Positions 33,133-61,296 of a stretch of 64,000 nt of DNA are shown here, one piece after another. The stretch lies in the sequence record PV577657; one strand, given 5' to 3'. The notes below the pieces were generated by a model, which was given only the letters and a program-made list of their open reading frames with translations, did no database searches and was not told where the DNA came from. Each line of letters starts with the position of its first letter. Position 1 is the stretch's first letter. This DNA is from Escherichia phage vB_EcoS_MM-1. The translations under genes were made by a program, and so were the position numbers.

Positions 33133-33222
33133 TCGTTAACTCCTTCATCAATTTATATAACTATTATACCAGAAATTTAAAGCAAAAGGCAAGTACATTT
33201 TTAAAAATTCTGTTTGGAGGAG

Positions 33223-33429
33223 CTAAACTCCAGATTCTTCAGCTAAGTCTAGGCTAATAAGAGATATAGCCATAATTGCTGCTCCGTGTTCTCTTTCTCC
33301 TGTCTCTTTAGCTAGGGTTATAATATCAAGAAATTGCTTATGAAAGTCTGCAACCTCTTGAGTCATACCTGCCTCAGCAATCATGCCTTTAAGCATGAAA
33401 CGTTGTGCGGTAATTTCGGGATTAGCCAT
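33223..33429 (-). CDS. hypothetical protein
   Basis: 68 aa. Confidence 0.45.
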   Translation of the reverse strand: MANPEITAQRFMLKGMIAEAGMTQEVADFHKQFLDIITLAKETGEREHGAAIMAISLISLDLAEESGV

Positions 33430-33587
33430 GTTGTTTCTCCAGTTTCATGTTTAATAGTCTACAAATAAAATCAATGTCTTCATCTGTGCCTAGATCTCTA
33501 TCTTCAAGAGTTGCCTTGAAGTTTTTCGTCAATTCCATGAGGATAACTTCTCTAGAACGACGTGTTGGCGGAGGTGGATGTCTATAC
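33423..33587 (-). CDS. small hypothetical protein
   Basis: 54 aa, AAGGA RBS; stop overlaps next start. Confidence 0.3.
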
Positions 33588-33604
33588 ATCTTATTTCCTT
33601 AAGT

Positions 33605-33681
33605 TGGTAGGGGTGGTGGGATTCGAACCCACAAAACCTGAATTTTAAGTCCAGTACCTATGCCAATTCGATTACACCCCC
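33605..33681 (-). tRNA. tRNA, anticodon loop CUUAAAA (UAA, Leu-type) with short variable arm
   Basis: G1-U72 acceptor, T-loop TTCGAAT; type I body is unusual for Leu. Confidence 0.45.
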
Positions 33682-33782
33682 ATGTAATCAGTTTATTAGT
33701 TGATACATATTATAGCCTAGTGAAAATCCTACTACTAGTCCCACAAACCAACCAATATAATAATCTTTTAGTTTCACAGGTA

Positions 33783-33968
33783 TTATCCTCGTTCAATATC
33801 TAGGGAAACACCGCAGTTAGGATTAATACCTGTACCGTTGCAATTTGAACAAATCCAGATATTGCAAAAAGTATCTCCTGCTTCTGCATCAGAACTTTCA
33901 CCAATTCCCCTACACTCAGGGCAGGCACATTCTTCTAGCTCTTGCTTGAGTTCTTGAAACTTGGACAT
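33783..33968 (-). CDS. small Cys-rich zinc-ribbon-like protein
   Basis: 61 aa with CxCPEC and CSNCNGTG clusters. Confidence 0.45.
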   Translation of the reverse strand: MSKFQELKQELEECACPECRGIGESSDAEAGDTFCNIWICSNCNGTGINPNCGVSLDIERG

Positions 33969-33977
33969 ATAGTCTCC

Positions 33978-34166
33978 TTAGTCAATTACTTTTGAGGCTT
34001 CAAGGGAGTCGATATAGTATACGTTTTCTACCATAATCATATAATCTGCCACTTTATCCATAGCTTGGGCCTCAGAGGTAGCTCTGGCTAACCTATATCC
34101 TTTTTTATATTCATCCGGGTATTCTCTATCTTGAATAAATACAACATAAACTATGTATAATTCCAC
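33978..34166 (-). CDS. small hypothetical protein
   Basis: track ORF 33978..34313 overlaps two tRNAs; trimmed to GTG start after AGGGGA RBS. Confidence 0.3.
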   Translation of the reverse strand: MELYIVYVVFIQDREYPDEYKKGYRLARATSEAQAMDKVADYMIMVENVYYIDSLEASKVID

Positions 34167-34186
34167 TTGTAATCCCCTAATTAAGT

Positions 34187-34264
34187 TGGTGGCTCCCCGA
34201 GGATTCGAACCTACGTACCTTCCGGTTATGAGCCGGGTGCTCATACCATATGAGCTTGAGAACC
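34187..34264 (-). tRNA. tRNA-Met (CAU)
   Basis: anticodon loop CUCAUAA with G-C-rich anticodon stem, D-stem GCTC/GAGC, discriminator A. Confidence 0.55.
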
Positions 34265-34270
34265 AGAATT

Positions 34271-34359
34271 TGGCGGAAGAAGTGGGAATCGAACCCACAA
34301 GGCTATATTTCAAACCGACAGATTAGCAATCTGCTGCAATACCGTTATGCTATTCTTCC
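34271..34359 (-). tRNA. tRNA-Ser (GCU)
   Basis: 89 nt type II, anticodon loop UUGCUAA, discriminator G. Confidence 0.6.
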
Positions 34360-34380
34360 GAATTTATAAGATATATTATA

Positions 34381-34899
34381 TTAGAAATTTAGCTTCATAG
34401 CAAGAAAATTTTTCAAGTTTTCGGTAGACATCTCATCCACATCTACGGGAGAAACAAAGCCGTTTAATTTTCTAGCAAATTTTTCACCCGCAGGATCGTT
34501 GTCTCCGACAGCTACCAATTTAAAAGGTAATAATTTCAGTTGCTTTAATAACGCTTTTCCTGGAGAAGAACCTAACATTGCCAGGGCTGGATAACCAGCG
34601 TTATGTAGCGCAACTGCCTTAAATACAGATTCAGCGATCAATACTACTTTTTCATCTCCATTGAGAGTTTCTAGTCCCCATACACACTGGGTAGTAGAAT
34701 AAGTAAAATATTTAGCTTCAAAGGGACACTTACCATGACCTTTTGGAGCAGAAGGATTATACGTCTGATAGCCTCGCAACATCCCGGAGAAGTCATACAA
34801 CGGGACTGTTAGCCATCCTTCCGGACTTAACCAGCAATGATATTTATCTGTATCAAATCCTCTGGATAAGAGGTGCTGTGTTAGCTCATCAACATTCAT
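34381..34899 (-). CDS. Toprim-domain protein
   Basis: 'LIAES' and 'VAVGDNDPAGEKFA' (E and DxD Toprim motifs); start moved to the ATG after the conserved leader. Confidence 0.45.
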   Translation of the reverse strand: MNVDELTQHLLSRGFDTDKYHCWLSPEGWLTVPLYDFSGMLRGYQTYNPSAPKGHGKCPFEAKYFTYSTTQCVWGLETLNGDEKVVLIAESVFKAVALHNAGYPALAMLGSSPGKALLKQLKLLPFKLVAVGDNDPAGEKFARKLNGFVSPVDVDEMSTENLKNFLAMKLNF

Positions 34900-35074
34900 A
34901 TTTGGTTCCTCTCTCAAATTTATAGATATATTATACAGAGAATTTAGCATTCAAGCAATCAAATTTTTTAACTTTTTAGAGGAAAATCATAGGGCACTTA
35001 AGGGTAGCAGATAAGTGGGGAGGACCAAAATTTGTGACCCCACTAAAAATCCGGGGGCAATTTTTAAAGACCCC

Positions 35075-35103
35075 TTGACATTTTCGCTGGGGTAGTGTAA
35101 AGT
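35075..35103 (+). promoter_or_regulatory. sigma70-type promoter
   Basis: TTGACA, 17-bp spacer, TAAAGT; differs from the conserved early promoter motif. Confidence 0.5.
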
Positions 35104-35165
35104 ATATGTTATGGATGAGTGATCAAAGAGACACACATTTTCTATATACTAGGAGGTGTCAAAAT

Positions 35166-36155
35166 ATGACAGAAGAAGTAGCTAAGAGTCCTGAGACCGT
35201 CGCTAGCGTTGCAGCAGAACTGCACCGTCACGAGGAATCAGATAAGAAAAAGTGGGAGAAGGTCAGAGCCTACGAAGAAAAACATCGTGAACACGATGAT
35301 GAAGAAGAAGATGACGATGATGAACATTGTCATAAATATGGAAAACATAAAATGCAAGAACCAGTAAACGTATTCACTAGTGGCTTCCCTGGCCTACTGG
35401 GTGGTTACCCAGCAAACGCAGGTGCTTTCGGTGGTGAAGGTATGGGACTATTCGGAGCTATCCTAATCGGTGCTCTATTAACCGGCGGATTCGGTGGTTT
35501 CGGTGGATTCGGTGGACGTGGTGTAGTTGGTGAAGGTACCGCAGTTGATGCAGTACTTCAGAACCAAGATACCGCTAGTATTCTAGCAGCTATCAACACT
35601 ACTCGTACAGAGGCTAACCAGGGTACTGGAGCTGTTTTAAGCGCAGTTAACAATGGTTTTAGCCAGACAACCCAAAACCAGAGCCGTGATACTCAGTCTG
35701 TACTAACTACGATCTACGGTACAGATGCTAATCTGTCTAATCAGATCTGCCAGGAAACTCGCAACGTTATTCAGGGTCAGTTCGATCTTTCTCGCCAGAT
35801 TGATCAATCTTTCGCAGCTAACCAGATAGCTCGTGCACAAGATAAGTTTGATTCTGCACAGATCGCTTTCCAGCAGACTTTACAAACTAATAACCAGTTT
35901 GCCGCTGTTCAGGCTCAGATGTGTGCTAACCAGAACTCTCTGGAACGTCAGATCGCTGAATGTTGCTGTGAACTTCAGACTGCGATCGCTGGTGTAACTA
36001 CTGCGCGTATCCAGGATGAGTTAGACGCATGTCGCCTACGTGAAGCAATCGCTGCGGGTAGCGGTGCTAACGGTCAGGTAATTAATCAAATCGCTTTAAG
36101 TCTTGGTGCTATCACTCAGACTCTGGCTGGTCTGCAGGCTAAACTGCCGGCTTAA
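35166..36155 (+). CDS. glycine-zipper membrane protein with acidic/His-rich N-terminus and Gln/Asn-rich C-terminus
   Basis: AGGAGG RBS; 'GLFGAILIGALLTGGFGGFGGFGGRG'; low-complexity Q/N/T C-terminal half with Cys. Confidence 0.55.
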   Translation: MTEEVAKSPETVASVAAELHRHEESDKKKWEKVRAYEEKHREHDDEEEDDDDEHCHKYGKHKMQEPVNVFTSGFPGLLGGYPANAGAFGGEGMGLFGAILIGALLTGGFGGFGGFGGRGVVGEGTAVDAVLQNQDTASILAAINTTRTEANQGTGAVLSAVNNGFSQTTQNQSRDTQSVLTTIYGTDANLSNQICQETRNVIQGQFDLSRQIDQSFAANQIARAQDKFDSAQIAFQQTLQTNNQFAAVQAQMCANQNSLERQIAECCCELQTAIAGVTTARIQDELDACRLREAIAAGSGANGQVINQIALSLGAITQTLAGLQAKLPA

Positions 36156-36176
36156 TATTAAGGGGAGGAGCCCATT

Positions 36177-36593
36177 ATGAGTAAATATGGTTTTGTAAAT
36201 AACGGACTTAATCAAAGTATGGGCTCCCAGCAGCCCATTCCGGGTCTGGATAACCCCTACTTACAACAGTTGCAACAGCGTTTAGCAGAAGCGCAACAGA
36301 TGCAGCAACAACTCCAGCAAAACCCTGGAAGTGTGAGTCCTATGCAAATGATGCAGCAAATGAGCGGGCAGTCGCAAATGCCTCAACAAATGCAGCAACA
36401 GGTGCCTCAGCAGCAAGTTCAGCAACAAACCCAACAACCGCAGGTTTCTGCGGAAGGACAGGCAGTACTAGCCCTTTTCGAAGACTTCGCAAAGACAGAG
36501 GATGGGAAACAGCTTGTATCACTTATGGGTAAGTTTAATAGCTTCTGCCAAAGCCAAGTTGCAAAAGCTCAAAATGGGGGTAGTAACTCCTAA
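36177..36593 (+). CDS. glutamine-rich protein
   Basis: 138 aa, long Q runs; GGGAGGAG RBS. Confidence 0.5.
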   Translation: MSKYGFVNNGLNQSMGSQQPIPGLDNPYLQQLQQRLAEAQQMQQQLQQNPGSVSPMQMMQQMSGQSQMPQQMQQQVPQQQVQQQTQQPQVSAEGQAVLALFEDFAKTEDGKQLVSLMGKFNSFCQSQVAKAQNGGSNS

Positions 36594-36602
36594 GGAGGAA
36601 AT

Positions 36603-36797
36603 ATGTGTTGCAGAAAATCTGTTTCGTGCTGCCCAGTGCCTGTAGCACGTTGTTGCTCTCCAGCAATGTTTACGCAAATACCGGCGTTCAATCCCTTTGC
36701 CTTTAAGCCTACTCTTATCCTGCCCCCTAGAGTAGATTTTCAGTCAAGATTGGCCTCCCGTATGGGTGGTTGCTGTACACCGAGAGTATGGTTCTAA
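36603..36797 (+). CDS. small protein with four Cys-Cys doublets
   Basis: 64 aa; AAGGAGGA RBS. Confidence 0.45.
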   Translation: MCCRKSVSCCPVPVARCCSPAMFTQIPAFNPFAFKPTLILPPRVDFQSRLASRMGGCCTPRVWF

Positions 36798-36806
36798 ACC
36801 AAAAAC

Positions 36807-36840
36807 AAAAGCCCCTGCCGAAAGGTAAGGGGCTTTTTCT
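36807..36840 (+). terminator. rho-independent terminator of plus-strand cassette
   Basis: gcccct / aggggc stem then TTTTTCTTTT. Confidence 0.7.
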
Positions 36841-36846
36841 TTTGCC

Positions 36847-36887
36847 TTAAATACAGAAAAGCCCGCGCTCTCGTAGGAAACGCGGGC
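36847..36887 (-). terminator. rho-independent terminator of SPFH gene
   Basis: gcccgcg / cgcgggc stem, U-run on minus strand. Confidence 0.6.
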
Positions 36888-36912
36888 TTGGTTCGAAGAT
36901 TACGTGTAACTA

Positions 36913-37860
36913 TTACTTGTTACGCATATCCATGATCATTTGACCATCGTAGCCAGTACCTACCACAGTCTGAGGTACACCACCTTGATACTTCTGAGCA
37001 CGGATCATTTCAACTTCCAGTTGTTTCCAACGAATCATTTCAGGAGTAATGGTACGTTGCAATGCGGCGTTAGCTTCAGCTTCTTTCTTAGCTGCGTACA
37101 GTTTAGCATCTGCGTCACGTTCATTAGCAATAGCTTGGTTGTTACGAGCTTCACGATCTGCTTCTGCTTGTTTAACTTTTTGCTGTGCTTCCTGTTCAAC
37201 GCGAGCAAGTTCAGCTTTCGCAGCATTAACTTGCTCTTCACGAACTTTGGTATTCTGTACCTGTTCCATGATTACTGGCGGCAAGGTAATATCCTGAAGG
37301 AATACCTGCTTAACTGTGTAACCATATGGGCGCGCATACTCTTCAACTTCCTGTTGAATTGCAGTTTGCAATTGAGCCTGAATTTTAGCATCAAATAAAT
37401 CTTGTGCTTTAGGTACAGACTTACCAAACTCACGAATAGTAGACAGTAATTTTTCAGTTACATACTTGTCTAGTGCCTGATCCTGAGTACCTGCGTTAAT
37501 ACGGTTAATCGGTGCTTTAGAACCATCAAACTGCAACATAACAGTCAGGTCAACAGTGGATTTAAACTTATCCTGGCTAGGAACCTGAAGTTTATCTAAT
37601 TTTACAGCAATATCTTTTGTACTAAAAGTATCGAAAGATGCAAACGGGTTTACAAGATGGAAGCCCGGCAATACTGGATTAGGGTCTACTTTACCCAGGA
37701 ATGTTTGGGTTTTAACCGTACCATCAGAAACAATAGTATATGAATTAAAAGCTAGGATTAAACCTGCTAAACCAACTACAGCACCAATACCCCAACGTTT
37801 AATAGTACGAATTACTTTCTGCTCAGAAGTCAGTTCTTTCATATTTTTAGTAGCAAACAT
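36913..37860 (-). CDS. SPFH/Band-7 (stomatin/prohibitin-like) membrane protein
   Basis: N-terminal TM, SPFH-like core, C-terminal Ala/Glu/Gln-rich coiled coil. Confidence 0.6.
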   Translation of the reverse strand: MFATKNMKELTSEQKVIRTIKRWGIGAVVGLAGLILAFNSYTIVSDGTVKTQTFLGKVDPNPVLPGFHLVNPFASFDTFSTKDIAVKLDKLQVPSQDKFKSTVDLTVMLQFDGSKAPINRINAGTQDQALDKYVTEKLLSTIREFGKSVPKAQDLFDAKIQAQLQTAIQQEVEEYARPYGYTVKQVFLQDITLPPVIMEQVQNTKVREEQVNAAKAELARVEQEAQQKVKQAEADREARNNQAIANERDADAKLYAAKKEAEANAALQRTITPEMIRWKQLEVEMIRAQKYQGGVPQTVVGTGYDGQMIMDMRNK

Positions 37861-37894
37861 ATATTTCCTTTGTTTTAGTTACAGTTAATAAAAT

Positions 37895-37969
37895 TGGCCG
37901 AGGTGACAGGATTCGAACCTGCATAAAGGAATTTAGAAGACTCCTGCCTCTCCCTTAGACTACACCCCG
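37895..37969 (-). tRNA. tRNA-Arg (UCU)
   Basis: anticodon loop CUUCUAA, T-loop TTCGAAT. Confidence 0.6.
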
Positions 37970-38803
37970 TTTAAGTATTTTTAAGAACTCTCGTAAAAAC
38001 TCTTAAAAATACAGACGATACCGGGAGAGTCATAAGTCTCACTCATTAAGTATTTCAAGACAAAATACAGTAACGTCTATTATTTTCCAGTTTAAGTCAG
38101 GGTGACTTAGTGGTTATGTCCTGCGGTATATTGAGGACTCGGTTAGGCTTGGGGTCATGACTTCCCACCTTTTGCTGCTACTCAACAGGAGTTATCGCGA
38201 ATTACCTGTGCTATTGTGCACCATTAGTGACATCTCTCATGTCAGCATTTCCCACTTTGTGGATAGCTTGAAAAACTACTCCGATATGGAGAAAGAACTT
38301 CACTATCCTAGAATACCTTCTAAAGTTCTTCTTTAGCCTGGACATAGTTAAATCGTAATAAAACTATTCAGCAGACTGGTTGGTTAGTCTGGAACCAACT
38401 ACCGCGTGGTTTAGGCAGTGCGCAACTAACCTCGGAAGCTTTTATGTTAAAAGCATCAGTTATCCAGTTCTTACCGACCGTAGGATTCGAACCTACATCT
38501 TCCACCAGTTACGGCTTGATAATACCAATTATACTAGGACGGCAGTGTTACTACATAAGTGATTTCCACACCCCACTATTTATAAATCAGAGAAGAGTTT
38601 AGGGGAGAGGTTTCAGACGCCTCATTTTACACGTTCTAGCCACTAACCGGGATTGCCGCCCCCTGTGTACTAGTTTTACAACTAACCCACCGACTCTATT
38701 CAATGCGCTCCGGTTGGGATTCTGCACTCAGCGTAATCGGCTCGCTGTTCCCTAATTTATGAATATATTATACAGAATTTATAAGCATTTAGCAAATGAA
38801 TTT

Positions 38804-48010: not shown

Positions 48011-50341
48011 TTAAATAGTACAACCGCCTGATGCACAACCAGCTGCTTCTTCTCCAGCACCACCACCATTTGCGGTGTTGAAGTTAGCATAATACCAAGT
48101 TTTCCACCCGTATTTAACAGCAGTCATGAAATCACGAACTACTACTGGGCCAGGAATAATTTCATTCTCAAACTTGGTGTAGTCGTAGTACATATTAGTA
48201 CTAACAGACTGGCTGAAGAATTTCTGCATAGTTGCTACCCATTTGATCCACTCGATACGATCTACATCATAAGCCAATTTATAGCTCATTAACGTTTCCC
48301 AATCGGTTGCACCTGGAGCAATTGCAATTACTTTATTTACTGCACTACCCTTGATAGATACAATCTTACGAGGTGGTTCGATAGAGTTAGTAACACCTAA
48401 CAGAACAGAAGAACTTTCTCCCGGCATCTGAGCAGTCAGAACAGAGTTACGCATACCATATTTCAGAATATCTGCACGCAGAGACTCCCAGTCCATTTCT
48501 AGACCTACGGATACCAGCTCATCAACAGTTTTCTTGTACGTGTCGATTACCAGAATTCCTTTAGATGGTTTAGTACGATCAAACCACTCACATGCACCCT
48601 GTTCCTTAGCCAGGCGTACAGAGGCTTTATGCAGGAAGTAAGACAGTTTTTCAGCCTCACGGTGGATCCAGTTACGAGCTTCAATACCTTCGTAAGCCAG
48701 ACCTTCTGCTGCCATTGCACCTGCTGCGTTCATTAGGCCAATACCGACATTACGACGTTTCTTGGCCGTATATTCCATAGTTGGGAACGGATAATCCTGA
48801 ATTTCAATAATTGTATCAACAAACTTCAGAAGGATGTAGCAAGTTTTTTCCCACTCAGCCAGAGATTCCATGCGTCCAAGTACAACACCACCTAAGTTAC
48901 ACAGAGATACTTCACCAATATCCTCCGGCTTCATTTGATCAAGCTGCTCTTTTGTCTTATACAGCTCTGTGATATGATGGAACGGGCGAGTAGGCTGAGT
49001 AATTTCAACACAAAGGTTTGTCATACGGATCGGATCAAGGAAATTACCGTGACGATTAGATTCCCCGATGTGATGAGCATACATACGTCCTGTTTCCATT
49101 CGGATACGTAGCCAAGTATCTAGAATTTCTTTTGCAGAGACTTTAGGAGCTGCTGGAACTGTTTTTCCTTCATGGTCGATCTTTGTAAGAGATGCCACAC
49201 GTTTCTCCGCTGCCACGTAGATTTCTTCAAATTTAGCCTCGTCATCACTATAAAACGCTTCATGAACTTCTGGAGCATAGAAGTATGACATTAGCGTAAT
49301 ATCTTCATTTTTCAGATAACGTTTTAACAAAAGATTGTTGAAGCTCAGAGAATAATCCATCTTATCGATTTTATTCTCATCTGTAGCACGTTGTTGCTTA
49401 ACCTGCATCAATTGAATGATTTCAGGATCGAAATACGGATAAGACACTGTAGCAGAACCACCACGAGTTTGCTGAGTATTGGCCTTTACTGAGCGGTCAA
49501 TGTGTCGATAATATGGCAGTTTTCCGGAATGCGGGAATGCCCCATTTCGCACCGGATCAGCAATTGATCGGCTTTCAAGATGATACCCGATTCCCGCTCT
49601 GGCTGCGACCATTTTGAAGACGATGTGCTCGGCGGTGTCGATTGAATCCAACGTGTCAGTGGAATCCACGAGGCAGCAACTAGCAAATCCACGGTCACTA
49701 GAGCGCAGGCCAACCAGTGGCGGCGTAGGAACGTTGATTTTGTGGAGCGACATTGCGTTGTAGAGGTCGATTGCATCTAAAATTGTCCAATTAGGTTGAG
49801 ATAACATCGCCATTGCCATACCCATGTAGGCAAACTGCGGGGTTTCATAAATTTCACCAGTGGCTATATTACGACGGGAATACTTATCAAAGAACTGCTT
49901 CAGCCCACCACTAGTAAAAAGACGGTCACGATCATGGTCGATAACCTGATTCAGAGCTTCAAATTGCTCATCGGTAATCCATGCACTCATATCTTCCCAT
50001 GCACCTACACTAACCATGTGGTCATGGAAGAAGCGTAGAGAAGGTGGTTCGAAAGAATCATAAAGACGTTTACGCATTTGCGCAAGACGTAATTCCTTTG
50101 CTGGCACATCGTATGCTGGGTTATCTTTGATAAGACTTTCAGCAGCTTTAATTAATGCGTCCATCAGAGTGTCGGAATCTACAACCCCTTTAGGTAGAGT
50201 TTTTTGAGCAGCCATAGTAATGGCTGACCAGCTTACATCAACTGTTTTGCAACCATACTCTGCCCAACCATTGAGTTTTTCAGGAGCAAAGTCTTCTACA
50301 GTACCGTCACGTTTAATTACTTTTTCAATGCGATGGCTCAT
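48011..50341 (-). CDS. nrdA: ribonucleotide reductase class I large subunit
   Basis: starts 'MSHRIEKVIKRDGT' like NrdA; track's 35-aa N-terminal extension rejected because it spans a terminator hairpin. Confidence 0.8.
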   Translation of the reverse strand: MSHRIEKVIKRDGTVEDFAPEKLNGWAEYGCKTVDVSWSAITMAAQKTLPKGVVDSDTLMDALIKAAESLIKDNPAYDVPAKELRLAQMRKRLYDSFEPPSLRFFHDHMVSVGAWEDMSAWITDEQFEALNQVIDHDRDRLFTSGGLKQFFDKYSRRNIATGEIYETPQFAYMGMAMAMLSQPNWTILDAIDLYNAMSLHKINVPTPPLVGLRSSDRGFASCCLVDSTDTLDSIDTAEHIVFKMVAARAGIGYHLESRSIADPVRNGAFPHSGKLPYYRHIDRSVKANTQQTRGGSATVSYPYFDPEIIQLMQVKQQRATDENKIDKMDYSLSFNNLLLKRYLKNEDITLMSYFYAPEVHEAFYSDDEAKFEEIYVAAEKRVASLTKIDHEGKTVPAAPKVSAKEILDTWLRIRMETGRMYAHHIGESNRHGNFLDPIRMTNLCVEITQPTRPFHHITELYKTKEQLDQMKPEDIGEVSLCNLGGVVLGRMESLAEWEKTCYILLKFVDTIIEIQDYPFPTMEYTAKKRRNVGIGLMNAAGAMAAEGLAYEGIEARNWIHREAEKLSYFLHKASVRLAKEQGACEWFDRTKPSKGILVIDTYKKTVDELVSVGLEMDWESLRADILKYGMRNSVLTAQMPGESSSVLLGVTNSIEPPRKIVSIKGSAVNKVIAIAPGATDWETLMSYKLAYDVDRIEWIKWVATMQKFFSQSVSTNMYYDYTKFENEIIPGPVVVRDFMTAVKYGWKTWYYANFNTANGGGAGEEAAGCASGGCTI

Positions 50342-50410
50342 TTGGCTTTCCTTTTTATAGTTATCAGGATTTAAGGAATATTCTACTTTATTATCGGTCA
50401 TTAGGCAAAT

Positions 50411-50456
50411 AAAATTTTCTGATAGAAAAGGCCCGAGTATTTTCATACCCAGGCCT
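50411..50456 (-). terminator. rho-independent terminator
   Basis: aggcc / ggcct stem, U-run on minus strand. Confidence 0.45.
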
Positions 50457-50482
50457 GTATATTACCAGTCTAGCTTTTTAGC

Positions 50483-50704
50483 TTATTCAATTACTTTAGC
50501 TCTAGCTACTTCTTTTAATAGAATATCTATGGAGGTGCTCAGCTCGTTATAATTGAATGGTTTATTTGGATTTGAGGTTACAATTTTCCACGCTAGGGTT
50601 GTCTTAGGACTTTCTTCCCCTTCCTTACGTGTAATCATATTAGCAGCACTCAGTGAAGTACGATGTATTTTAGTTTTACGGCTCAGATGAACGACGTTTC
50701 CCAT
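50483..50704 (-). CDS. hypothetical protein
   Basis: start trimmed to ATG 1 nt after phoH stop, GGAAGG RBS. Confidence 0.35.
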   Translation of the reverse strand: MGNVVHLSRKTKIHRTSLSAANMITRKEGEESPKTTLAWKIVTSNPNKPFNYNELSTSIDILLKEVARAKVIE

Positions 50705-50705
50705 A

Positions 50706-51467
50706 TTACACCTTCCCCATGTCTTTAAAAATATCATAGAATGCTTTAGACTCAACAGAACGAACGTTATCAATCAATTCGATCATTGAGAATGGGGCAT
50801 TTTCGTATCTCTCATAGACTTCCATAAGGAGTGCTAGACCTGAGTCACCTTTAATGTCTTTCTGAGCTATATCTCCGCAGATAATTAAACGGCAGTCTTG
50901 TCCTACACGAGTTAGGAGACAAATCATTGCCTCAACGGAAATATTCTGAGCTTCATCGACAATTACATAGGAGTTGTTGAAAGTTCTGCCACGAGCATGT
51001 TCGATAGCCAAAAATTTAATTTTCTGACGTTCGACATATCCCTTATAGGCATGTTCGCCGATGGCCCATTTCATACCATCAGCTATTGGCTCCAACCAAG
51101 GCTCTAGCTTTTCTGCTAGATCACCAGGAAGCATACCAAGAGACTTACCTAGAGGTTCATTAGGACGTACGAGAATCACTTGCTCAATATCTGAGTGAAT
51201 GTCTACGAGTTCCTGAGCTGCAAGAACGGACGGAATAAAGGTTTTACCAGTACCTGGCTCACCGATACCCACAGTCACTGTGTTGTTCTTGATCATATTG
51301 ATATATGATTTTTGCTCGCGGTTTTTACCTACTAGGGATTTAGCAACTGGGTTAGCGTAATCATTAGAAAAATCAGCCTGAATTACGTTATTCTCATATT
51401 TGTTGCCACGCTTTCTTGAACCATTGCGGTTCTCTCTTTTTTGACGTGCTTTTCCCATAAATAACAC
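50706..51467 (-). CDS. phoH: PhoH-like ATPase
   Basis: Walker A 'GEPGTGKT', 'VIVDEAQN' Walker B. Confidence 0.7.
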   Translation of the reverse strand: MLFMGKARQKRENRNGSRKRGNKYENNVIQADFSNDYANPVAKSLVGKNREQKSYINMIKNNTVTVGIGEPGTGKTFIPSVLAAQELVDIHSDIEQVILVRPNEPLGKSLGMLPGDLAEKLEPWLEPIADGMKWAIGEHAYKGYVERQKIKFLAIEHARGRTFNNSYVIVDEAQNISVEAMICLLTRVGQDCRLIICGDIAQKDIKGDSGLALLMEVYERYENAPFSMIELIDNVRSVESKAFYDIFKDMGKV

Positions 51468-51752
51468 TCCTATAGTGTACTTCGCTAACAGAGGATCAAC
51501 AAAAAGATCTTGTTTATCAACTTACAAATATATTATACCAATATATACAGTAAAAAGCAACTACAATTTTAAATAAGCCTATGATATTGCATTTAAATAA
51601 AAAATTTGCTTGCTTTTAACGTGAGATGTGTGATACTAGATAATCATTTTATATCGCGTGTACGAGTGCGTGATTATACAATTTTTAATAGAGATTGGCA
51701 AATAAAATTTTTTGACTCAGATCATGTTACAGAACTTTATAGTAAAATATTG

Positions 51753-51781
51753 TTGACATCCGCCCTCGAATGAGTTATAAT
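51753..51781 (+). promoter_or_regulatory. promoter of nrdD
   Basis: TTGACA, 17-bp spacer, TATAAT. Confidence 0.6.
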
Positions 51782-51810
51782 AGTAGTCTTAGTTAGAGAA
51801 GGAGAGTATA

Positions 51811-53685
51811 ATGAATCGCAATGAAGAACTAAAGTATAAAGAAATGCAGGCGTTAATTAGAAACTGCAAAGAGATTATCGAAGGGTCAGCAGATGAAGAG
51901 CTGCTGTTTAATAATGCCAATAAACCCTCAGAACGTTTCCCTACTCAGAGGGATATGCTTGCAGGTGAATTGAGTAAGTATCTGATTCTAGAAGAAATGC
52001 CAATTCAGATTCGAAATGCTCATATGATTGGGGATATTCATTTCCATGATGCTGATTATGCTGCATTAGGCATGACTAATTGTTGTCTGGTAGCTCTGGA
52101 AGATATGTTGAAGAATGGTATGAAGGTTGGTAATGCTGAAATTAGCCCTCCAAACTCTATCACTACTGCAGCGGCTATTACTGCTCAGATTATCACTCAA
52201 GTTAGCTCCCATCAGTATGGTGGCACTTCCGTGGATCGCCTTGATGAAGTATTAGCTCCTTATGTTCGTAAATCCTATGACAAAAATCATGCGTTTGCAA
52301 AACGTTGGACTAAGGATGAGGCCAAAGCATCAGTAATGGCTACGGAGATGACTGAAAAAGAAGTCTATGATGCTTGTCAGGGTCTAGAGTATGAAATCAA
52401 TACGATGTTCAACTCTAATGGTCAGAGTCCATTTATTACCTTTGGTTTTGGTCTAGGAACTTCTTGGGAAGCACGTCTAGTACAGAAAGCAATACTGAAA
52501 GTACGCATGGATGGTTTAGGTATCAATAAACGTACAGCTATCTTCCCGAAACTGGTATTTGTACTTCGTGATGGCGTAAATATGAAACCAGGAGATGTTA
52601 ATTATGACATCAAGAAGTTAGCTATGAAATGTACTGCTGAACGTATGTATCCAGATTATATCAGCTATGACAAGGTTGTAGAAGTTACTGGAGACTATAA
52701 AGTTTCTATGGGCTGTCGTTCATTCCTAGCTGCTACAGAAGATGGTGAAACTGCCGGTCGTAATAACTTAGGTGTTGTTTCTGTAAACTTGCCTAGAATT
52801 GCTATCGAAGCTGAAGGAAATATTGATCTATTCTTTGATTTGCTTGAGCTACGTGTGGATACAGCGTTAAAAGCATTGGAGTGGAGAGTTGATCGCTTAA
52901 AATACATCCAAGCTAAAGCTGCACCTATCCTCTATATGTCAGGAGCCTTTGGTTTACGCTTGGAGCCTGATGAATATGTATTCGATCATTTCTATAACCG
53001 TGCTTCTGTATCTCTAGGGTATATTGGTTGTCATGAAATGCTACAGTTCATGTTTGGCAAAGATGTAGACACAATGTCCGAGACCTGCATCAAGTTTGTT
53101 CAGCGTGTATTGCAGTATATGCGAGATAGAGTCGATCAAAAGAAGGAAGAGACTAAGTTAGGTTATAGCCTATATGCTACACCATCAGAATCCCTATGTG
53201 ACCGGTTTTGTCGTCTAGACCGTGAATATTTTCCAGAGCATGAAGATATTCTGTCCAAAGGATACTATACTAACTCTCACCACCTTGATGTGGAACGTAA
53301 AGTTGCTCCTAACGTGAAATTTGATTATGAATCTAACTTTACTCCGATTGCTTCTGGTGGGTGTATTTCCTATGTAGAACTACCGGATATGAAACGATTC
53401 CCAGATGCACTGGAATGGGTTATTAATTATGCTGCTAGTAAGGTTCACTACTTCGGTATTAATACTCCAGTAGATTCTTGTGGTAAATGTGGATTCTTAG
53501 GTGAAACAATAGCATCCGAAGATGGATTTAAGTGCCCTATCTGTGGCAACCATGACCCCGAAACTCTTGAAGTGACTCGTCGAGTTTGTGGGTATCTTGG
53601 AAATCCAGGTGCTCGTCCATTTAACCCAGGCAAACAGCATGAGGTTATGAGCAGGGTGAAACATCAGGATATTCGAGCTAAATAA
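51811..53685 (+). CDS. nrdD: anaerobic ribonucleoside-triphosphate reductase
   Basis: 624 aa; C-terminal glycyl-radical motif 'RVCGYLG'. Confidence 0.8.
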   Translation: MNRNEELKYKEMQALIRNCKEIIEGSADEELLFNNANKPSERFPTQRDMLAGELSKYLILEEMPIQIRNAHMIGDIHFHDADYAALGMTNCCLVALEDMLKNGMKVGNAEISPPNSITTAAAITAQIITQVSSHQYGGTSVDRLDEVLAPYVRKSYDKNHAFAKRWTKDEAKASVMATEMTEKEVYDACQGLEYEINTMFNSNGQSPFITFGFGLGTSWEARLVQKAILKVRMDGLGINKRTAIFPKLVFVLRDGVNMKPGDVNYDIKKLAMKCTAERMYPDYISYDKVVEVTGDYKVSMGCRSFLAATEDGETAGRNNLGVVSVNLPRIAIEAEGNIDLFFDLLELRVDTALKALEWRVDRLKYIQAKAAPILYMSGAFGLRLEPDEYVFDHFYNRASVSLGYIGCHEMLQFMFGKDVDTMSETCIKFVQRVLQYMRDRVDQKKEETKLGYSLYATPSESLCDRFCRLDREYFPEHEDILSKGYYTNSHHLDVERKVAPNVKFDYESNFTPIASGGCISYVELPDMKRFPDALEWVINYAASKVHYFGINTPVDSCGKCGFLGETIASEDGFKCPICGNHDPETLEVTRRVCGYLGNPGARPFNPGKQHEVMSRVKHQDIRAK

Positions 53686-56485: not shown

Positions 56486-56877
56486 ATGGAACAAGTATAT
56501 TGGCGTCAGATTGACCCTAGTTTGGTGAAACGTGCGGAGAAGCTGCTACAACGTTGGTTGTGGGTAAGACAAGCCTCCTTCACTTTTCCGAGCAGCAAAC
56601 AGATGATCCCTGTATTGGTGTTTTCCTATCCGGCTACGCCGGGGAATGGGAATTGGATTGGAATGAATTGTCTGCTATGGGTTTAATTGTTGCCCTAAAT
56701 TTCTCTTTGTTCCATCCACGTGGGTTGGCCATACGTCGTGTGCCGGGTGATGGTTGTTCGCCCCATTTTTTACAGGTGGAAGATGATATTTGGGAGTACA
56801 CTCCAGATATTCTCGCAGAAGCTAAAGAACAATTAAATCGTGTTGGGATTTATGTTCCAGGCCTAAATGATGAATGA
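56486..56877 (+). pseudogene. paralog B with an internal frameshift
   Basis: N-terminal homology in the frame starting 56486, remainder in the frame starting 56554; switch near 56555-56575. Confidence 0.4.
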
Positions 56878-57016
56878 TTTTTATTAGCTGAAATTTGTAA
56901 TCCGGGCTATTAGTGCTCGGATTATTACATAATCTTTTCAGTCGATTGACAGTCAAAATAAATTGTCGTTGACAATTTGGATGGATTATGTAATAATATA
57001 TGTATTGGAGGTGAGG

Positions 57017-57469
57017 ATGTCATTCACACAGCAAGAACTTTTAGATAACTTCCGATATGAAGATGGTAAGTTATTTAGAACTACAGGAAGAAATGCAGGG
57101 AAAGAATGTTGTGTTTCTACAGGTAACGGATATTATCGTATATCTCTAGGGAATAGGACTATGCTTCGGCATAGAGCAATATTTTTAATGCATCATGGAT
57201 ACTTACCTGATTTAGTAGATCATGTGAATACTATAAAAGGTGATGATCGTATTGAAAATCTTAGAGAGCAGACAGTATCCGGTAATCTAAGAAATATCAA
57301 ATATAAGAAAGGAATGCATGTTTACCCTTCTGGTAGTAAGAACTGGCAAGTGGTATTTACTATTAACCGTAAACGTATAGTTAAAGGAACATATGACAAC
57401 TATGAGGTTGCATGTTCTATGGCCAAGATGTTTAGAGGTCAATTATACGGTAGGGAATCAATCCAGTAA
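57017..57469 (+). CDS. HNH homing endonuclease
   Basis: 'HHGYLPDLVDHVNTIKGDDRIENL'; GGAGGTGAGG RBS. Confidence 0.55.
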   Translation: MSFTQQELLDNFRYEDGKLFRTTGRNAGKECCVSTGNGYYRISLGNRTMLRHRAIFLMHHGYLPDLVDHVNTIKGDDRIENLREQTVSGNLRNIKYKKGMHVYPSGSKNWQVVFTINRKRIVKGTYDNYEVACSMAKMFRGQLYGRESIQ

Positions 57470-57479
57470 AATTTCATTT

Positions 57480-57509
57480 GCAAGGGAGTATTATTTTATA
57501 GTATAATAT
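57480..57509 (+). promoter_or_regulatory. early-type promoter
   Basis: TTGCAA, 18-bp spacer, TATAAT, then conserved leader without an ORF. Confidence 0.45.
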
Positions 57510-58004
57510 TCCCATAAATGAGAGACATTAGTAAAAATTGATTTTGCTAATTTTTCTTGTTTACAATCCGCGATACGGAACAGTTAGGCTGCCCCATTAA
57601 GGGTTGTTTTAACTGTTACGTGTTAGTTTTTAAACAAATAGTTAATAGAATACTTAGCGATCTACATCCCGTAGGAACCCTGGTAAGGCCTCGAAGCAAC
57701 CTAGTGTGAGGTGGTTGTGAAGTGAGACGGGAAGAGTGAAAAACTCTGAGAAGTGATGACGTAAGGTATACTGCATCTAGTATGAGCTAGTACATGAAGC
57801 ATTAGGTGAGCAAATCTGGCTTAGCGGCCATCCTCAAGGATTTGTGCGGTATAGTGAAGCGGCAGTGTAGCGTGAAAGGGGAAGTTGCCACCCCCCTTCA
57901 GTATTTGCGATTAATTTGTTGAGAAATTGACAGTAACAGTTGTTCTATTCTTTCTGAATAGTCCTAAAGAAAACTTATTTCATTTCCAACACAGGAGTAT
58001 TGTT

Positions 58005-60791
58005 GTGTTCTCAATCCTACAAGGTCATGCAGGATTTCATCGCGATTTAGCCACAGGCATTTGGCGAGAAGTTAAAGCAGAAGACTATCTTTTTGCTAAA
58101 AGATTTTCCTCAAAGCATCCTGAAGGTAAACCAGCTTCAATGCCCTTCAAGTTTGATGTAATTGATGAAGTTGATCCTCAAACCCTAGTAGAAATGCTCC
58201 CTCTTATGAGACGTTTAACGTCTGACCCTCATATCGTTGCGGTACGAGGTCGATGTCTTGCACCCAAAAATAATGTGCGGCGTAAGAAGGGCAACTTTAA
58301 TGTATCTAACCCAAGTCATATAATTGCAATGGACGTGGATGGTATTGTAGATACAGGTGGTTGTAACAAGTTTGATCTTGTTGGCATGGCTCGACATATT
58401 ATTAGAATGTTAAATAGTATTAGTGAGGATATGTTTCCTCTTGATGCAGGGTTTATTGCTCATGCATCGTCTTCGGCTGGGCTAAAACCAGGTATCCGAA
58501 TGCACTTAATACTAGAATCTAATGTTAAAGTAACTCAGGGTCAAATCAAATTCTTATTTACATCTATCAATGAAAGTAGTAGACAAAAGTATGGCTTTGA
58601 TATTGCCGACTTAGCTTATTACTCTTCCGTACAGCTCCATTATTTTGCAGATCCGTTATTTACCGATGGTATAGTAGATCCGTTTAAGGCGGAGGGTGCT
58701 TCACGTCTGGTATTTGTTAAGGGTTCTAAAGTAAACTTACCTAATAATCTGGTTGACTATGAAACAACTAGAGGTGAGTTTAAGGAGGAGTTTTACTCTT
58801 TACTCGATCAAATTAAAGGTAAAAAAGCTGCCTCCGATAAAGTAGAGGAAACTATCAGCGAACTAGAAGAAGCTGAGGATGGAGTGTATCTACGTATCAT
58901 ACCTAAACTCTATCACAGAGCTTTAGAGGATGGTGTTGATTTTGCATGGCTAGAAAAAGAAATCCGTCCAGCCTTATCAGAATATATTGCAACCAAAGAT
59001 AATAGTCGTAATATTCAAGATTACTTTAATAACGGTCGTAAACAGGCTCTGAAAGCATTTGTTAATAATTCTAAACGCGATATACCTGATGTTTTAAAAG
59101 GTATTCCACTTAAAAAGCTAGAAACTAACTCTCTAGAAACTGATAACTTCTTGAAATTAAATACTGTACCACCAGAAGGTTATATGACTTTTGTAAAAGC
59201 AAGTCTAGGTACAGGTAAAACTACGGCGGTTGTGCGTTGGTTAGATTCAGGAGTTATTAAAGGTAATTTCTTAGCAATTACCAATACTCGAGCACTGGTA
59301 TCTTCAAATGCTAAGAAATTTAGTGCAGGACAATATGATAAGTCTGTAGATATGCTTAATTTTAAGCGTGGTGCTATTGACCGTATGTCCACAACTATTC
59401 ACTCTTTGCATAAGTTCAAGAGTTTTATTGGTCAAATCGATGCAATCTTTATAGATGAATGTGATGCTGTAATGAATGACCTATTATTCGCCCCGGTTGT
59501 TAAACAACGTCGTGAATGTATTCAGGTTCTTCGGGATATTCTTGCAACTGCAAAAATCATTATATTATCTGATGGGGATATTAGTGCAGAAACAATTGAA
59601 GCATATGGTTCTTTAATTGAGTTTGATAAACCGGTTGCATTTTATAATCATCACCGAAAAATGCTATCAAAAGCTCATGCCTACGAGTTCCCTGATGAAT
59701 CCAGTATTTGGGTTGCACTTCAGACTTCTCTAGAGATGGGTGAGAAATCTATCCTAGTATCTGACTGTGGGCCGGATGAACTGAATGAGAAGGGCATGGC
59801 GTTGCGTCGTAATACGGGTGCGTTAGTTAAGGAAATCCACTCAAACTCTACGTCTGATGTAGATATTCGACGTATTCTGGATTACACAACTAATGAGTTA
59901 ATTGACCAACAAATTGATTGCTTATTATGTAGTCCATCCGTAACGAGTGGTGTTGACTTCAACTATTTTGATAACGTATTCGTTATTACTAGAACCAGTA
60001 ACCAAGCGCCAAACATGCGTTTTCAAGCAATCAGGCGCGACCGTGGTGCTCAGAACATTTATTATTTTATTGATAAATCTACGAGTGGATTCTCCGCAGG
60101 CTCTGAACAATATAATATTGATGAAGGTTGGCTGGAGTTAGCACAGCAATTATACGCACGTCGTAGGGAGCTGGAGTCTAGGAACTATACTAGTACTTTA
60201 CGTTATTACTTGCTTGATCAGGGTGCAACTATTGATATTTTCAGTGAAAGCTGGGGAACTATCGAAGGTGCAGGTAAAGAGTATACAGAAGAGCGAATCA
60301 AAGCCATTTTGTATTCAACTCCTGATTATTGTGCTCCACGCCATGCAGATGCATATGAAGCTAAACTACTTCTTGTTCGCTATTATCATCTTGAGTCTAT
60401 TAAAGATGTAACAGTTGAGCATGTTGAGCAATACATTAAGGATAAACCGAATGATCGAGCGGCATTCTTCCATAAAATGCACGAGATGTTCTGGGAAGAT
60501 ATTAAGAAGTGTTCAAATGTCACTATCAAACCATTCATAGAAGCTCTGAAAGGCAAGAAGAAAGATTTCTTCCTTAAAACAGGTCAGAGTGCTAACCCAA
60601 AATATGCCAGAATGTATCTTGGTATGATGGGTATTGGCAAGGATATGAACACGGAGAATATTGTAGACTGGTACAGAACTTATTGTAAAATCGAGTGTAT
60701 GCCAATTCCTTTCAAATTCATGACAGAGGAAGAGAAGGCTATGGCAGAAGAAGTACTGTCCGAACTTGGAGCAACTAATGAAGACGCATAA
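58005..60791 (+). CDS. P-loop NTPase, helicase-like replication protein
   Basis: Walker A 'GTGKTT' (59208-59225), Walker B 'IDECD' (59454-59465); GTG start after AGGAG RBS preferred over track start 57927. Confidence 0.55.
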   Translation: MFSILQGHAGFHRDLATGIWREVKAEDYLFAKRFSSKHPEGKPASMPFKFDVIDEVDPQTLVEMLPLMRRLTSDPHIVAVRGRCLAPKNNVRRKKGNFNVSNPSHIIAMDVDGIVDTGGCNKFDLVGMARHIIRMLNSISEDMFPLDAGFIAHASSSAGLKPGIRMHLILESNVKVTQGQIKFLFTSINESSRQKYGFDIADLAYYSSVQLHYFADPLFTDGIVDPFKAEGASRLVFVKGSKVNLPNNLVDYETTRGEFKEEFYSLLDQIKGKKAASDKVEETISELEEAEDGVYLRIIPKLYHRALEDGVDFAWLEKEIRPALSEYIATKDNSRNIQDYFNNGRKQALKAFVNNSKRDIPDVLKGIPLKKLETNSLETDNFLKLNTVPPEGYMTFVKASLGTGKTTAVVRWLDSGVIKGNFLAITNTRALVSSNAKKFSAGQYDKSVDMLNFKRGAIDRMSTTIHSLHKFKSFIGQIDAIFIDECDAVMNDLLFAPVVKQRRECIQVLRDILATAKIIILSDGDISAETIEAYGSLIEFDKPVAFYNHHRKMLSKAHAYEFPDESSIWVALQTSLEMGEKSILVSDCGPDELNEKGMALRRNTGALVKEIHSNSTSDVDIRRILDYTTNELIDQQIDCLLCSPSVTSGVDFNYFDNVFVITRTSNQAPNMRFQAIRRDRGAQNIYYFIDKSTSGFSAGSEQYNIDEGWLELAQQLYARRRELESRNYTSTLRYYLLDQGATIDIFSESWGTIEGAGKEYTEERIKAILYSTPDYCAPRHADAYEAKLLLVRYYHLESIKDVTVEHVEQYIKDKPNDRAAFFHKMHEMFWEDIKKCSNVTIKPFIEALKGKKKDFFLKTGQSANPKYARMYLGMMGIGKDMNTENIVDWYRTYCKIECMPIPFKFMTEEEKAMAEEVLSELGATNEDA

Positions 60792-61296
60792 ACCAATGCC
60801 TCCTATGGCATTTATCCTAGAAAAGCTTAGGTATGACGAAAGTACTGGGGACTTAATTTGGTTATCTGGCCCAAGGAAGGGAAAGGTAGCGGGCTCCAAA
60901 ATGAAAACTGGGAGACAGCTAGAGTTTATGATAAATGGGGGGCGGACAGCTTACTTAGCCCATAGAATAATCTGGTTTATAAAGACAGGTGAAGATCCTG
61001 GAGATAAAACTATTGACCATAAAGACGGTGATAGTTTAAACAACTTGTGGGATAATTTACGTAAGGCTACCTATTCCGAAAATGGAAAGAATAAGAAGTG
61101 TTCTACTAATTCTACCGGATTCACTGGAGTTGTAAAACGAGGTAATAGGTATATGGCCTACGCTTACTGCGATGGAAAGCAACATATTTTTGGTAGACGA
61201 GATACCCCGGAAGAAGCCCATCAGCTATACCTTAGGGGAGTTAAAGAGCTGTTTGGTGAATTTAATCCCTCGGAGAGATATGACAGTGAAGAATAA
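60778..61296 (+). CDS. HNH homing endonuclease
   Basis: 'IDHKDGDSLNNLWDNL'; ATG after GGAG RBS. Confidence 0.55.
   Translation: MKTHKPMPPMAFILEKLRYDESTGDLIWLSGPRKGKVAGSKMKTGRQLEFMINGGRTAYLAHRIIWFIKTGEDPGDKTIDHKDGDSLNNLWDNLRKATYSENGKNKKCSTNSTGFTGVVKRGNRYMAYAYCDGKQHIFGRRDTPEEAHQLYLRGVKELFGEFNPSERYDSEE

Follow-up and report, generated by a model that had tools for sequence, protein, structure and literature searches.

What does a T5-like phage encode between an endonuclease gene and the gene for its initiator helicase, where a promoter is followed by no protein-coding gene? We have analyzed here the gap at positions 57470–58004 of Escherichia phage vB_EcoS_MM-1 (sequence record PV577657; the window is the whole stretch of 64,000 nucleotides [nt], and its numbering is used throughout), which is situated between an HNH_3 endonuclease gene (57017–57469) and the gene for the D2 helicase, a Herpes_ori_bp protein (58005–60791). 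The window belongs to a T5-like phage (Tequintavirus); over positions 57400–58100 it shows 100% identity to Escherichia phage vB_EcoS_MM-2, and matches are found in 440 phage records. We conclude that the gap contains a promoter-driven, structured RNA of ~430 nt upstream of D2 that is free of open reading frames (ORFs), and that it is neither a missed gene nor an intron. It represents a new, strongly supported family of large structured leader RNAs found only in the Demerecviridae. None of the genome records inspected annotates the stretch as RNA, with several giving small 'hypothetical proteins' or nothing at all, and in the searchable literature we found no description of the RNA and no T5 transcripts or origins mapped to sequence.

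Among phages, T5 is a classic model, and wide use is made of its relatives in both phage therapy and food safety. An RNA beside the gene for the essential initiator helicase D2 offers a testable handle on where and how T5 replication starts and on what the N-terminal half of D2 targets, and, as a well-supported candidate family, it extends the still short catalog of phage RNAs that are large and structured.

A conserved fold with family-wide covariation

Folding with covariation analysis across related phages, a check proposed in an initial annotation of the gap, provides strong evidence for the RNA. In a MAFFT alignment of 32 sequences with an RNAalifold structure, 89.7% of cells are paired as against 37–49% in slid controls, 40 pairs are altered on both sides (15–20 in the controls), and the covariation score is 0.312 compared with 0.06–0.12; none of 500 shuffles reaches the observed pairing or covariation values. 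Compensatory changes are seen among close relatives, such as CCCG/CGGG to CCCA/UGGG and AGAGU/ACUCU to GGAGU/ACUCC. The junction sub-domain formed by helices Pf, Pg, and Ph has 92.7% of cells paired versus 33–46% when slid, with 26 of its 33 pairs altered on both sides, in an alignment that was itself fitted to the model.

The leaders fall into five alignable deep lineages, designated A (the window type), B (T5 and Stitch), C (Pectobacterium phage DU_PP_V), C' (Pectobacterium phage My1), and D (Klebsiella). Cross-lineage MAFFT alignments of the sub-domains were too poor for direct model building, and models were built from lineage A and then iterated. A covariance model from lineage A alone (57745–57875) recovers the other lineages, in each case on the + strand and at the syntenic position, with scores for this junction model of E=1e-5 for D, 3e-5 for C, 0.08–0.5 for B, and 0.5–3 for the Providencia phages; the rebuilt junction model finds My1, which was outside the training set, with E=8e-7. 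A model of the Pb–Pe region (R3, lineage A only) finds both DU_PP_V (E=1.8e-10) and My1 (E=4.7e-5) at their syntenic positions. By covariance-model search, the window has one copy of the RNA.

The consensus fold is much more favorable on the + strand (−40.6 kcal/mol, 87 pairs) than on the − strand (−24.5 kcal/mol, 52 pairs), and G-U pairs are abundant in it, such that many conserved pairs would be A-C mismatches on the other strand. The far better + strand fold and the frequent G-U pairs argue for a functional form that is a + strand single-stranded nucleic acid, and because the promoter is conserved, this is most simply RNA. As a single sequence, the window leader folds with z=−2.2.

An early promoter without a gene

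The transcription signals at the start of the leader are as follows.

57478–57507, + strand: early-type sigma-70 promoter, with −35 TTGCAA (57478–57483), an 18-nt spacer, and −10 TATAAT (57502–57507), scoring 10/12 in a consensus scan
57513–57525, + strand: transcript start region CATAAATGAGAGA, the T5 early-leader motif without a Shine-Dalgarno sequence (GGAG) or start codon

The early promoter and leader motif lacking a start codon that were noted from the letters alone are thus both present. A promoter is also annotated at the homologous site in the T5 reference record, and the TATAATA box is unchanged across six lineages, including Proteus and Serratia phages. Transcription probably starts at CATAAATGAGAGA, which is a truncated form of the T5 early leader, ATAAT..CATAAATTTGAGAGAGGAG; the full leader occurs at 16663, 34908, 53752, and 61546, before four other genes, compared with a shuffled expectation of 0.72.

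Between the start motif and the GTG start of D2 there are ~490 nt that contain no conserved ORF. MM-2 annotates two mini-ORFs in the gap (57557–57709 and 57806–57922), but in T5, Stitch, DU_PP_V, My1, and the Klebsiella lineage both are disrupted, through stops, frameshifts, or a lost start codon, and neither has a Pfam match; we conclude that these calls (CDS0144 and CDS0145) are spurious. Together with the family-wide covariation, this bears out the view of the gap as an ORF-free structured region and not a missed gene. The description of part of it as moderately GC-rich is also accurate, with a G+C content of 0.44–0.54 in 57650–57900 relative to 0.27–0.39 in the flanks. The RNA strand has far more G than C, with a skew of up to 0.50 at 57700–57799. 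No terminator was found in the leader, and its 3' hairpin, H3, has no U-tract after it. A simple scan found no − strand consensus promoter within 57513–58004, although such an absence is weak evidence.

Architecture of the RNA

Some 430 nt of the leader form one elaborate + strand fold, consisting of a 5' hairpin, a single-stranded block J, a stalk, and a three-way junction that carries the core and a side hairpin. The coordinates are given below, with those of the stalk following a predicted duplex.

57520–57558, + strand: 5' hairpin H1, with lower stem GAGAGAC/UUUUCUU and upper stem UUAGUAAAA/UUUUGCUAA, present in the minimum free energy folds of both the window and T5
57572–57597, + strand: block J, single-stranded, 26 nt, GAUACGGAACAGUUAGGCUGCCCCAU (DNA GAUACGGAACAGUUnGGCUGC), near-invariant between subfamilies whose leaders are otherwise ~50–60% identical
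57610–57654, + strand: 5' strand of the AT-rich stalk, pairing with 57900–57942 over ~39 base pairs (bp) in four segments
57657–57873, + strand: core domain, closed by helix Pa (GCG..CUACAU at 57657–57667 with GUGUAG.CGU at 57865–57873)
57668–57747, + strand: core sub-domain Pb(Pc,Pd)+Pe, with Pb at 57668–72/57727–31, Pc at 57679–81/57686–88, and Pe at 57733–37/57743–47
57690–93/57723–26 plus 57696–701/57713–18, + strand: core helix Pd, within the Pb(Pc,Pd)+Pe sub-domain
57748–57755, + strand: junction GAGAAGUG, kept in lineages A, C, C', and D as GAGAAGUG or AAGAAGUG
57758–57863, + strand: three-way junction Pf/Pg/Ph, with Pf0 at 57758–61/57860–63, Pf at 57767–74/57846–53, Pg at 57775–80/57802–07, and Ph at 57810–17/57838–45
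57818–57829, + strand: Ph loop GGCUUAGCGGCC, invariant or nearly so in all lineages
57876–57898, + strand: hairpin Pi (AAGGGG, loop AAGUUGCCACC, CCCCUU), a small side hairpin at the three-way junction
57900–57942, + strand: 3' strand of the AT-rich stalk, with a perfect 9-nt arm (57933–57941) pairing with 57611–57619
57945–57961, + strand: 3' hairpin H3, CUAUUC UUUCU GAAUAG
57991–58013, + strand: D2 translation initiation region, with Shine-Dalgarno ACAGGAG (57991–57997) and the GTG start at 58005

Conservation of pairing with divergence of sequence is seen throughout this structure. Pa (helix 10 of the consensus) is 97.9% paired with six of nine pairs altered on both sides, the H1 helix (helix 2) has four such pairs, and stalk helices 7 and 9 are 92–95% paired with nine. 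All eight representatives have stalk duplexes, of −27 to −40 kcal/mol, that differ in sequence by lineage. The core is of near-constant size, at 218–224 nt in all five deep lineages, and contains about nine helices; its Pb–Pe half has many compensatory pairs, and was unrecognizable in T5-type or Klebsiella-type cores. H3 covaries, with CUUUCC/GGAAAG in DU_PP_V and CUAUC/GAUAG in the Klebsiella phage. Within the Ph loop, GGCU and GGCC can pair as a mini-hairpin around a UAGC tetraloop, and a double change in My1 (GACU/GGUC) preserves this mini-stem. Block J shows no synonymous-type variation, and its GGCUGC might pair with GCGGCC in the Ph loop.

The initial annotation gave two helices as examples of local structure. 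One of these, GAAAGGGG..CCCCCTTC, corresponds to Pi, a real conserved hairpin, with a hairpin at this position in every lineage (AUAUGA/UCAUAU in T5 and GAGG/CCUC in the Klebsiella phage). The other, ACAGTTA..TAACTGT (57580–57616), does exist in the sequence (12 nt, 92% complementary) but is not a conserved pairing, and its 3' arm belongs instead to the conserved long-range stalk, with its partner at 57933–57941. This switch-like repeat (57575–86/57610–21) is not conserved in DU_PP_V or My1, where block J is invariant and the other arm changes, and it is at best a lineage-specific alternative pairing.

The D2 initiation region is also drawn into the fold, in that a nine-sequence RNAalifold consensus pairs it with the 5' pyrimidine tract (57554–57560) and the 5' GAGAG. 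These helices (1 and 3) are 96–98% paired in the 32 sequences, with only one pair altered on both sides, which is weak evidence of covariation.

Distribution among the Demerecviridae

The fold is conserved in T5-like phages of Escherichia, Salmonella, Klebsiella, Pectobacterium, and Providencia, and is always directly upstream of D2 on the same strand. We compared the loci of T5, Stitch, Pectobacterium phages DU_PP_V and My1, a Klebsiella phage, Proteus phage Stubb, Serratia phage Slocum, Providencia phages PR1 and PSTCR5, and four Vibrio phages, and an ORF-poor gap of 430–830 nt precedes the D2 orthologue in most of the Demerecviridae loci inspected. The deep lineages are only ~45–65% identical overall, yet share two invariant blocks (GAUACGGAACAGUUnGGCUGC and GGCUUAGCGGCC) at a constant spacing. 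The lineage A core is nearer to the Pectobacterium phage cores than to that of T5, which suggests either an exchange of cores or their divergence as alleles.

The Providencia phages, which have an extra ~100 nt between the stalk and D2, were reached only by structure-aware models; an nhmmer profile from the five lineages gave nothing significant against the Proteus, Serratia, Providencia, and Vibrio leaders. In Proteus phage Stubb (L006) there are two perfect 12/12 sigma-70 promoters, one at 705–733 at the start of a 700-nt structured gap, and one at 1435–1464, 36 nt before D2. Because the second of these sits downstream of the structured region, Stubb D2 can, by this prediction, be expressed without the leader. 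The small ORFs in the Stubb gap are marked as doubtful by the record's own annotators. The leader of Vibrio phage VCPH folds with z=−2.4, no better than that of the window. Vibrio phage PG07 (L011, ~950–1100; also L088 and L089) contains a 42–64 nt direct repeat upstream of D2, in two copies ~113 nt apart and each with hairpins, which is an iteron-like arrangement unlike the T5-type fold.

Wider searches returned little. A metagenome scan with the D2 alignment gave five loci only, a pattern scan of a genome collection gave four matches in unrelated metagenome-assembled genomes (approximately the number expected by chance, and unsupported by the model), and there was no match in 5,426 E. coli genomes that would indicate a host origin.

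Several SP3-type and DT571/2-type phages have a 97-nt insertion directly after H1, flanked by a duplication of TTTTTCTT (L044:3410–3510, and at the same place in L062 and L072). It is found with type A and type B cores alike, and has the look of a small structured insert that is either mobile or duplicated.

Linkage of the RNA core to the N-terminal half of D2

The gene downstream of the RNA is the following.

58005–60791, + strand: D2 gene (T5.108, 'replication origin binding'), 928 codons with a GTG start, matching Pfam Herpes_ori_bp with E=3e-7

D2 is a biochemically characterized bipolar superfamily 2 (SF2) helicase with homology to UL9 of herpes simplex virus (HSV) (Wong et al. 2013, PMC3632103). 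DNA synthesis fails in amber mutants of D2, and an initiator role has been proposed for the protein (PMC3632103). Residues 393–722 match NCBIfam CyRepA1 (E=4.7e-35, 121.6 bits), below that model's curated cut-off of 200 bits. For the N-terminal half we found no function in PDB, Pfam, or PHROG, and a large protein search gave two fragments only. This half may contain DxD and sxH motifs of an AEP-primase-like kind.

The window and T5 are 93–97% identical in the flanking genes, but only 48–55% identical in the RNA core and 76–88% in D2 nt 1–1600, with identity returning to 91–97% in the remainder of D2. Across 28 T5-like genomes, there is perfect linkage between core type (13 A and 15 B) and the type of the first ~1600 nt (~530 codons) of D2, whereas the promoter/HNH variant, H1 and block J, the 97-nt insertion, and the 3' half of D2 all assort independently of core type. 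In one genome (L071) there is a converted patch in the 70-nt tail between the core and D2, and core and D2 are still unseparated. The RNA core and the 5' half of D2 thus behave as one hypervariable block and look like a co-adapted module, although tight physical linkage would be an alternative explanation. We also note that the patch of D2 most divergent between the window and T5 (59050–59200, codons ~350–400; 63–71% DNA identity) lies just before the helicase Walker A motif, and if D2 recognizes the RNA core then these codons are a candidate specificity segment.

Relationship to known RNA families

Scanning the whole window with Rfam at the gathering score reports transfer RNAs (tRNAs) only. 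The Rfam scan of the gap that had been proposed as a check matches no family even when permissive, and such scans of the gap region, eight related loci, and the VCPH leader return noise only and no Rfam 15 family; no known class of riboswitch aptamer is among the matches. RNase P RNA was considered on account of GGCUUA, ACAGAAC-like, and CCUGGUAAGGCC strings, and was rejected: searches with the RNase P models gave nothing for the window region and Vibrio phage VCPH (E<=10) or for the eight loci (E<=1). A P4 helix, in which a GGAAAGUCC-like strand pairs with ...GGCUUA, can be drawn as AAG(G)CC/GGCUU in the window and DU_PP_V, but it does not covary, in that My1 has GACUUA and the Klebsiella phage AGCUUA with no compensating change in the putative P4 partner strand.

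The RNA resembles GOLLD, ROOL, OLE, and raiA in its size, its many helices, its conserved loops, and its presence in phage genomes. It differs from them in having no covariance-model match to any, in its fixed position in the 5' leader beside one gene, and in its restriction to the Demerecviridae.

Comparison with replication-associated elements

The most instructive comparison is with pSYSA, in which a highly transcribed RNA locus (ssr7036) is immediately upstream of the gene for the 958-residue primase-helicase CyRepA1; the RNA locus and CyRepA1 are both required for replication, and the RNA probably acts as a primer in a ColE1-like manner (PMC9978351). Like ColE1 RNA II and the pSYSA RNA, the T5-type leader would be a strongly transcribed structured RNA of several hundred nt at a replication-control region. 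As in pSYSA, a helicase gene lies downstream, and the helicase half of D2 has the sub-threshold match to the pSYSA Rep family (CyRepA1) noted above. Unlike either system, the T5-type leader has no predicted promoter for an antisense regulator, and priming is here a proposal; unlike the pSYSA RNA, which encodes a small protein, it has no conserved ORF, and it shows no sequence or structure similarity to RNA II.

At the R-loop origins oriF and oriG of phage T4 and at the T7 primary origin, DNA synthesis is started by the transcript of an untranslated stretch that directly follows a phage promoter, and the T5-type leader likewise comprises a promoter and an untranslated stretch within an early replication-gene cluster. 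These T4 and T7 origins rely on an AT-rich unwinding element, and we know of no conserved, covarying multi-helix RNA fold in them, whereas in the T5-type leader it is the fold that is conserved. There is also some likeness to HSV-1 oriS, in that D2 is a UL9 homologue (PMC3632103) and inverted repeats flank an AT-rich segment beside the initiator's target. In contrast to the short DNA UL9 boxes of oriS, however, the T5-type leader keeps its pairing and not its sequence, and favors the + strand. Long imperfect duplexes that flank a structured RNA within a longer transcript are a feature of the RNase III stalks of ribosomal RNA (rRNA) precursors and T7 early mRNAs. The AT-rich T5-type stalk similarly flanks a structured RNA, and its cleavage is a prediction only.

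Plausible roles of the RNA

Several roles can be considered for the RNA. We tentatively favor that of a cis-acting, origin-associated pre-primer or activator RNA recognized by D2, and rank it first because pSYSA is the closest working precedent. Heavy early transcription through the G-rich structured segment would open or prime the template beside the initiator gene, and the lineage-specific N-terminal half of D2 would recognize the folded core, in the form of either RNA or the displaced + strand. The long stalk would be a site for double-strand-specific (RNase III-type) processing that separates the folded core from the D2 message. An untranslated structured transcript of several hundred nt from a strong promoter is predicted here, as for a pre-primer, and the imperfect duplex of at least ~20 bp that flanks the RNA at RNase III stalks is present as well (~39 bp in the window, with equivalents in 8/8 representatives); the stalk is a likely RNase III site. 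Stability of the RNA, its processing, and its binding by D2 are put forward as proposals only. Of the original suggestion that the gap is a regulatory 5' untranslated region, a stable non-coding RNA, or an origin-like element, the central point of a promoter-driven, ORF-free structured RNA stands; what we add is the constraint that the RNA is locked to the N-terminal half of D2.

We consider it rather unlikely, although attractive, that a UL9/CyRepA-type initiator has this RNA as its specificity partner, such that the origin of a double-stranded DNA phage is defined or fired via a large folded RNA to which the variable N-terminal domain of the initiator binds. Were this so, RNA core and D2 N-terminal domain would co-evolve as interchangeable 'replicon types', A and B, within the T5-like phages, and this would be the first sequence-defined T5 origin and a case of RNA-guided origin recognition.

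A number of observations count against a pre-primer or activator RNA recognized by D2. The T5 origins have been described only as 'multiple internal origins' (PMC3632103), with none mapped to sequence in the literature we searched. The GC-skew turning point is near 51 kb and not at 57.5 kb, although it probably reflects the switch in gene orientation there; the cumulative skew minimum is at ~50000–52000, with the tRNA cluster (27.7–38.5 kb) on the − strand side and the early replication genes (from ~53.4 kb) on the + strand side. Promoter prediction within 57513–58004 gives no antisense promoter like those of ColE1 RNA I or pSYSA asRNA1. The D2 orthologues of two metagenomic lineages (L075 and L084) and of Serratia phage Slocum have no recognizable copy of the RNA, with no ORF-poor gap before D2 in the former and a shorter leader in Slocum, and the RNA is therefore not indispensable to every D2. 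Membership of Proteus phage Stubb is weak (E=0.37), although the match includes a hairpin with a GCCUUAGCGGGU loop at the expected place, and the Vibrio-phage gaps (~600–730 nt) and distant metagenomic lineages gave no model match even with filters off, such that homology is not demonstrated for them. Lastly, the linkage between core and D2 could be a matter of mere physical proximity, as the two are ~100 nt apart.

The main rival explanation is that the RNA is a cis-regulatory 5' leader of the D2 mRNA that sets the amount of D2, a possibility we take seriously but think unlikely. The 5' GAGAG and the pyrimidine tract UUCUUGU would pair with the start-codon region and the Shine-Dalgarno ACAGGAG, and folding, RNase III cleavage within the stalk, or a bound phage protein (D2 itself being one candidate) would make the ribosome site accessible or block it; autoregulation by T4 gp32 and gp43 provides an analogue for such self-control. 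The leader is on the same strand as D2 and fills the interval from the promoter to the D2 Shine-Dalgarno, in which no terminator was found, and closure of the whole leader in the RNAalifold structure through well-paired helices between its 5' end and the initiation region is as this explanation would have it, as are the strict synteny with D2 and the co-segregation with the D2 5' half. However, the Shine-Dalgarno helix, although 97.8% paired, is a low-information purine/pyrimidine match with a single pair altered on both sides, and known phage translational operators span tens of nt and are not a 430-nt multi-helix fold of fixed size. The perfect promoter of Stubb between the structured region and D2 would bypass such control, and the extra ~100 nt between stalk and D2 in the Providencia phages also fits poorly. 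That same Stubb promoter, giving D2 a promoter of its own, together with the strong early promoter driving the RNA, would suit an independent trans-acting non-coding RNA, in which the core is released by stalk cleavage and acts elsewhere, perhaps by decoying or scaffolding a host or defense protein, in the manner of other large ornate RNAs associated with phages. The complex fold, constant size, and invariant loops agree with this, and the ~39 bp stalk flanks the core in the manner of an rRNA-precursor processing stalk. We nonetheless judge a trans-acting RNA to be quite improbable, as it does not predict the strict adjacency to D2 or the co-inheritance with the D2 N-terminal half unless D2 is its partner, no terminator sets a 3' end, there is a single copy in the window, and there is no similarity to an Rfam family.

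That the element functions only as DNA, with the inverted repeats acting as a cruciform or hairpin origin or as a protein-binding site and the fold of the transcript being incidental, is very improbable. Long inverted repeats do adjoin the initiator gene, and HSV UL9, the homologue of D2, recognizes a hairpin form of its origin. Against this stand the strand bias of the fold, the G-U pairs described above, and the conservation of the promoter at the 5' edge in every lineage, and the many short internal helices resemble an RNA tertiary fold more than an array of binding sites, with no iterons found. We give hardly any credence to a group I or group II intron, or the remnant of a mobile element, brought in by the neighboring endonuclease. 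The presence of a free-standing HNH_3 gene directly upstream had raised the question of a group I intron at the outset, and the leader does accept insertions, as illustrated by the 97-nt insert. However, there is no intron model match either at the gathering score in the window or at E<=10 in 57300–58200, and there is no split gene: intact genes flank the leader on both sides (D2 on one and HNH or, in T5, T5.107 on the other), and T5 has a terminator and promoter there and no exons. Nor is the endonuclease gene embedded in the element, as it lies upstream of the promoter and represents a separate insertion, one that T5, Stitch, DU_PP_V, My1, and the Klebsiella and Providencia phages (including PR1) lack; all of these phages retain the RNA. 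The intron question is thereby answered in the negative, and a pre-primer or activator RNA recognized by D2 remains the role that we tentatively favor.

Flanking genes and other features of the window

The HNH_3 gene has its own 11/12 promoter at 56969–56997. Gene and promoter (within 56880–57470) are an insertion relative to T5 and Stitch that has replaced the T5 terminator and the sequence upstream of the leader promoter, and the variant start TTCCCATAAATGAGAGAC is found in phages of both RNA core types. A 25-nt direct repeat brackets the leader, with copies at 57471–57495 and 57977–58001 that are 76% identical. On the other side of D2, a second HNH-type gene (60766–61296) overlaps the D2 end; it is present in T5 and is missing from the Stitch-type phage L060 (alignment gap at ~60700–61250), and is a further free-standing homing-endonuclease insertion flanking D2.

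Upstream of the HNH_3 gene, the T5.107 homologue (56486–56877) has a 1-nt deletion relative to T5 (alignment column 104), as a consequence of which its 130-codon ORF is split; MM-2 annotates two 'hypothetical proteins' here, and the split gene is a probable pseudogene or sequencing frameshift. The tRNA gene cluster is on the − strand at 27690–38543. ARAGORN and Rfam each report 19 genes, with three in disagreement: tRNA-His (28684–28760) and tRNA-Ala (29519–29597) are reported by ARAGORN only, and a tRNA at 38472–38543 by Rfam only.

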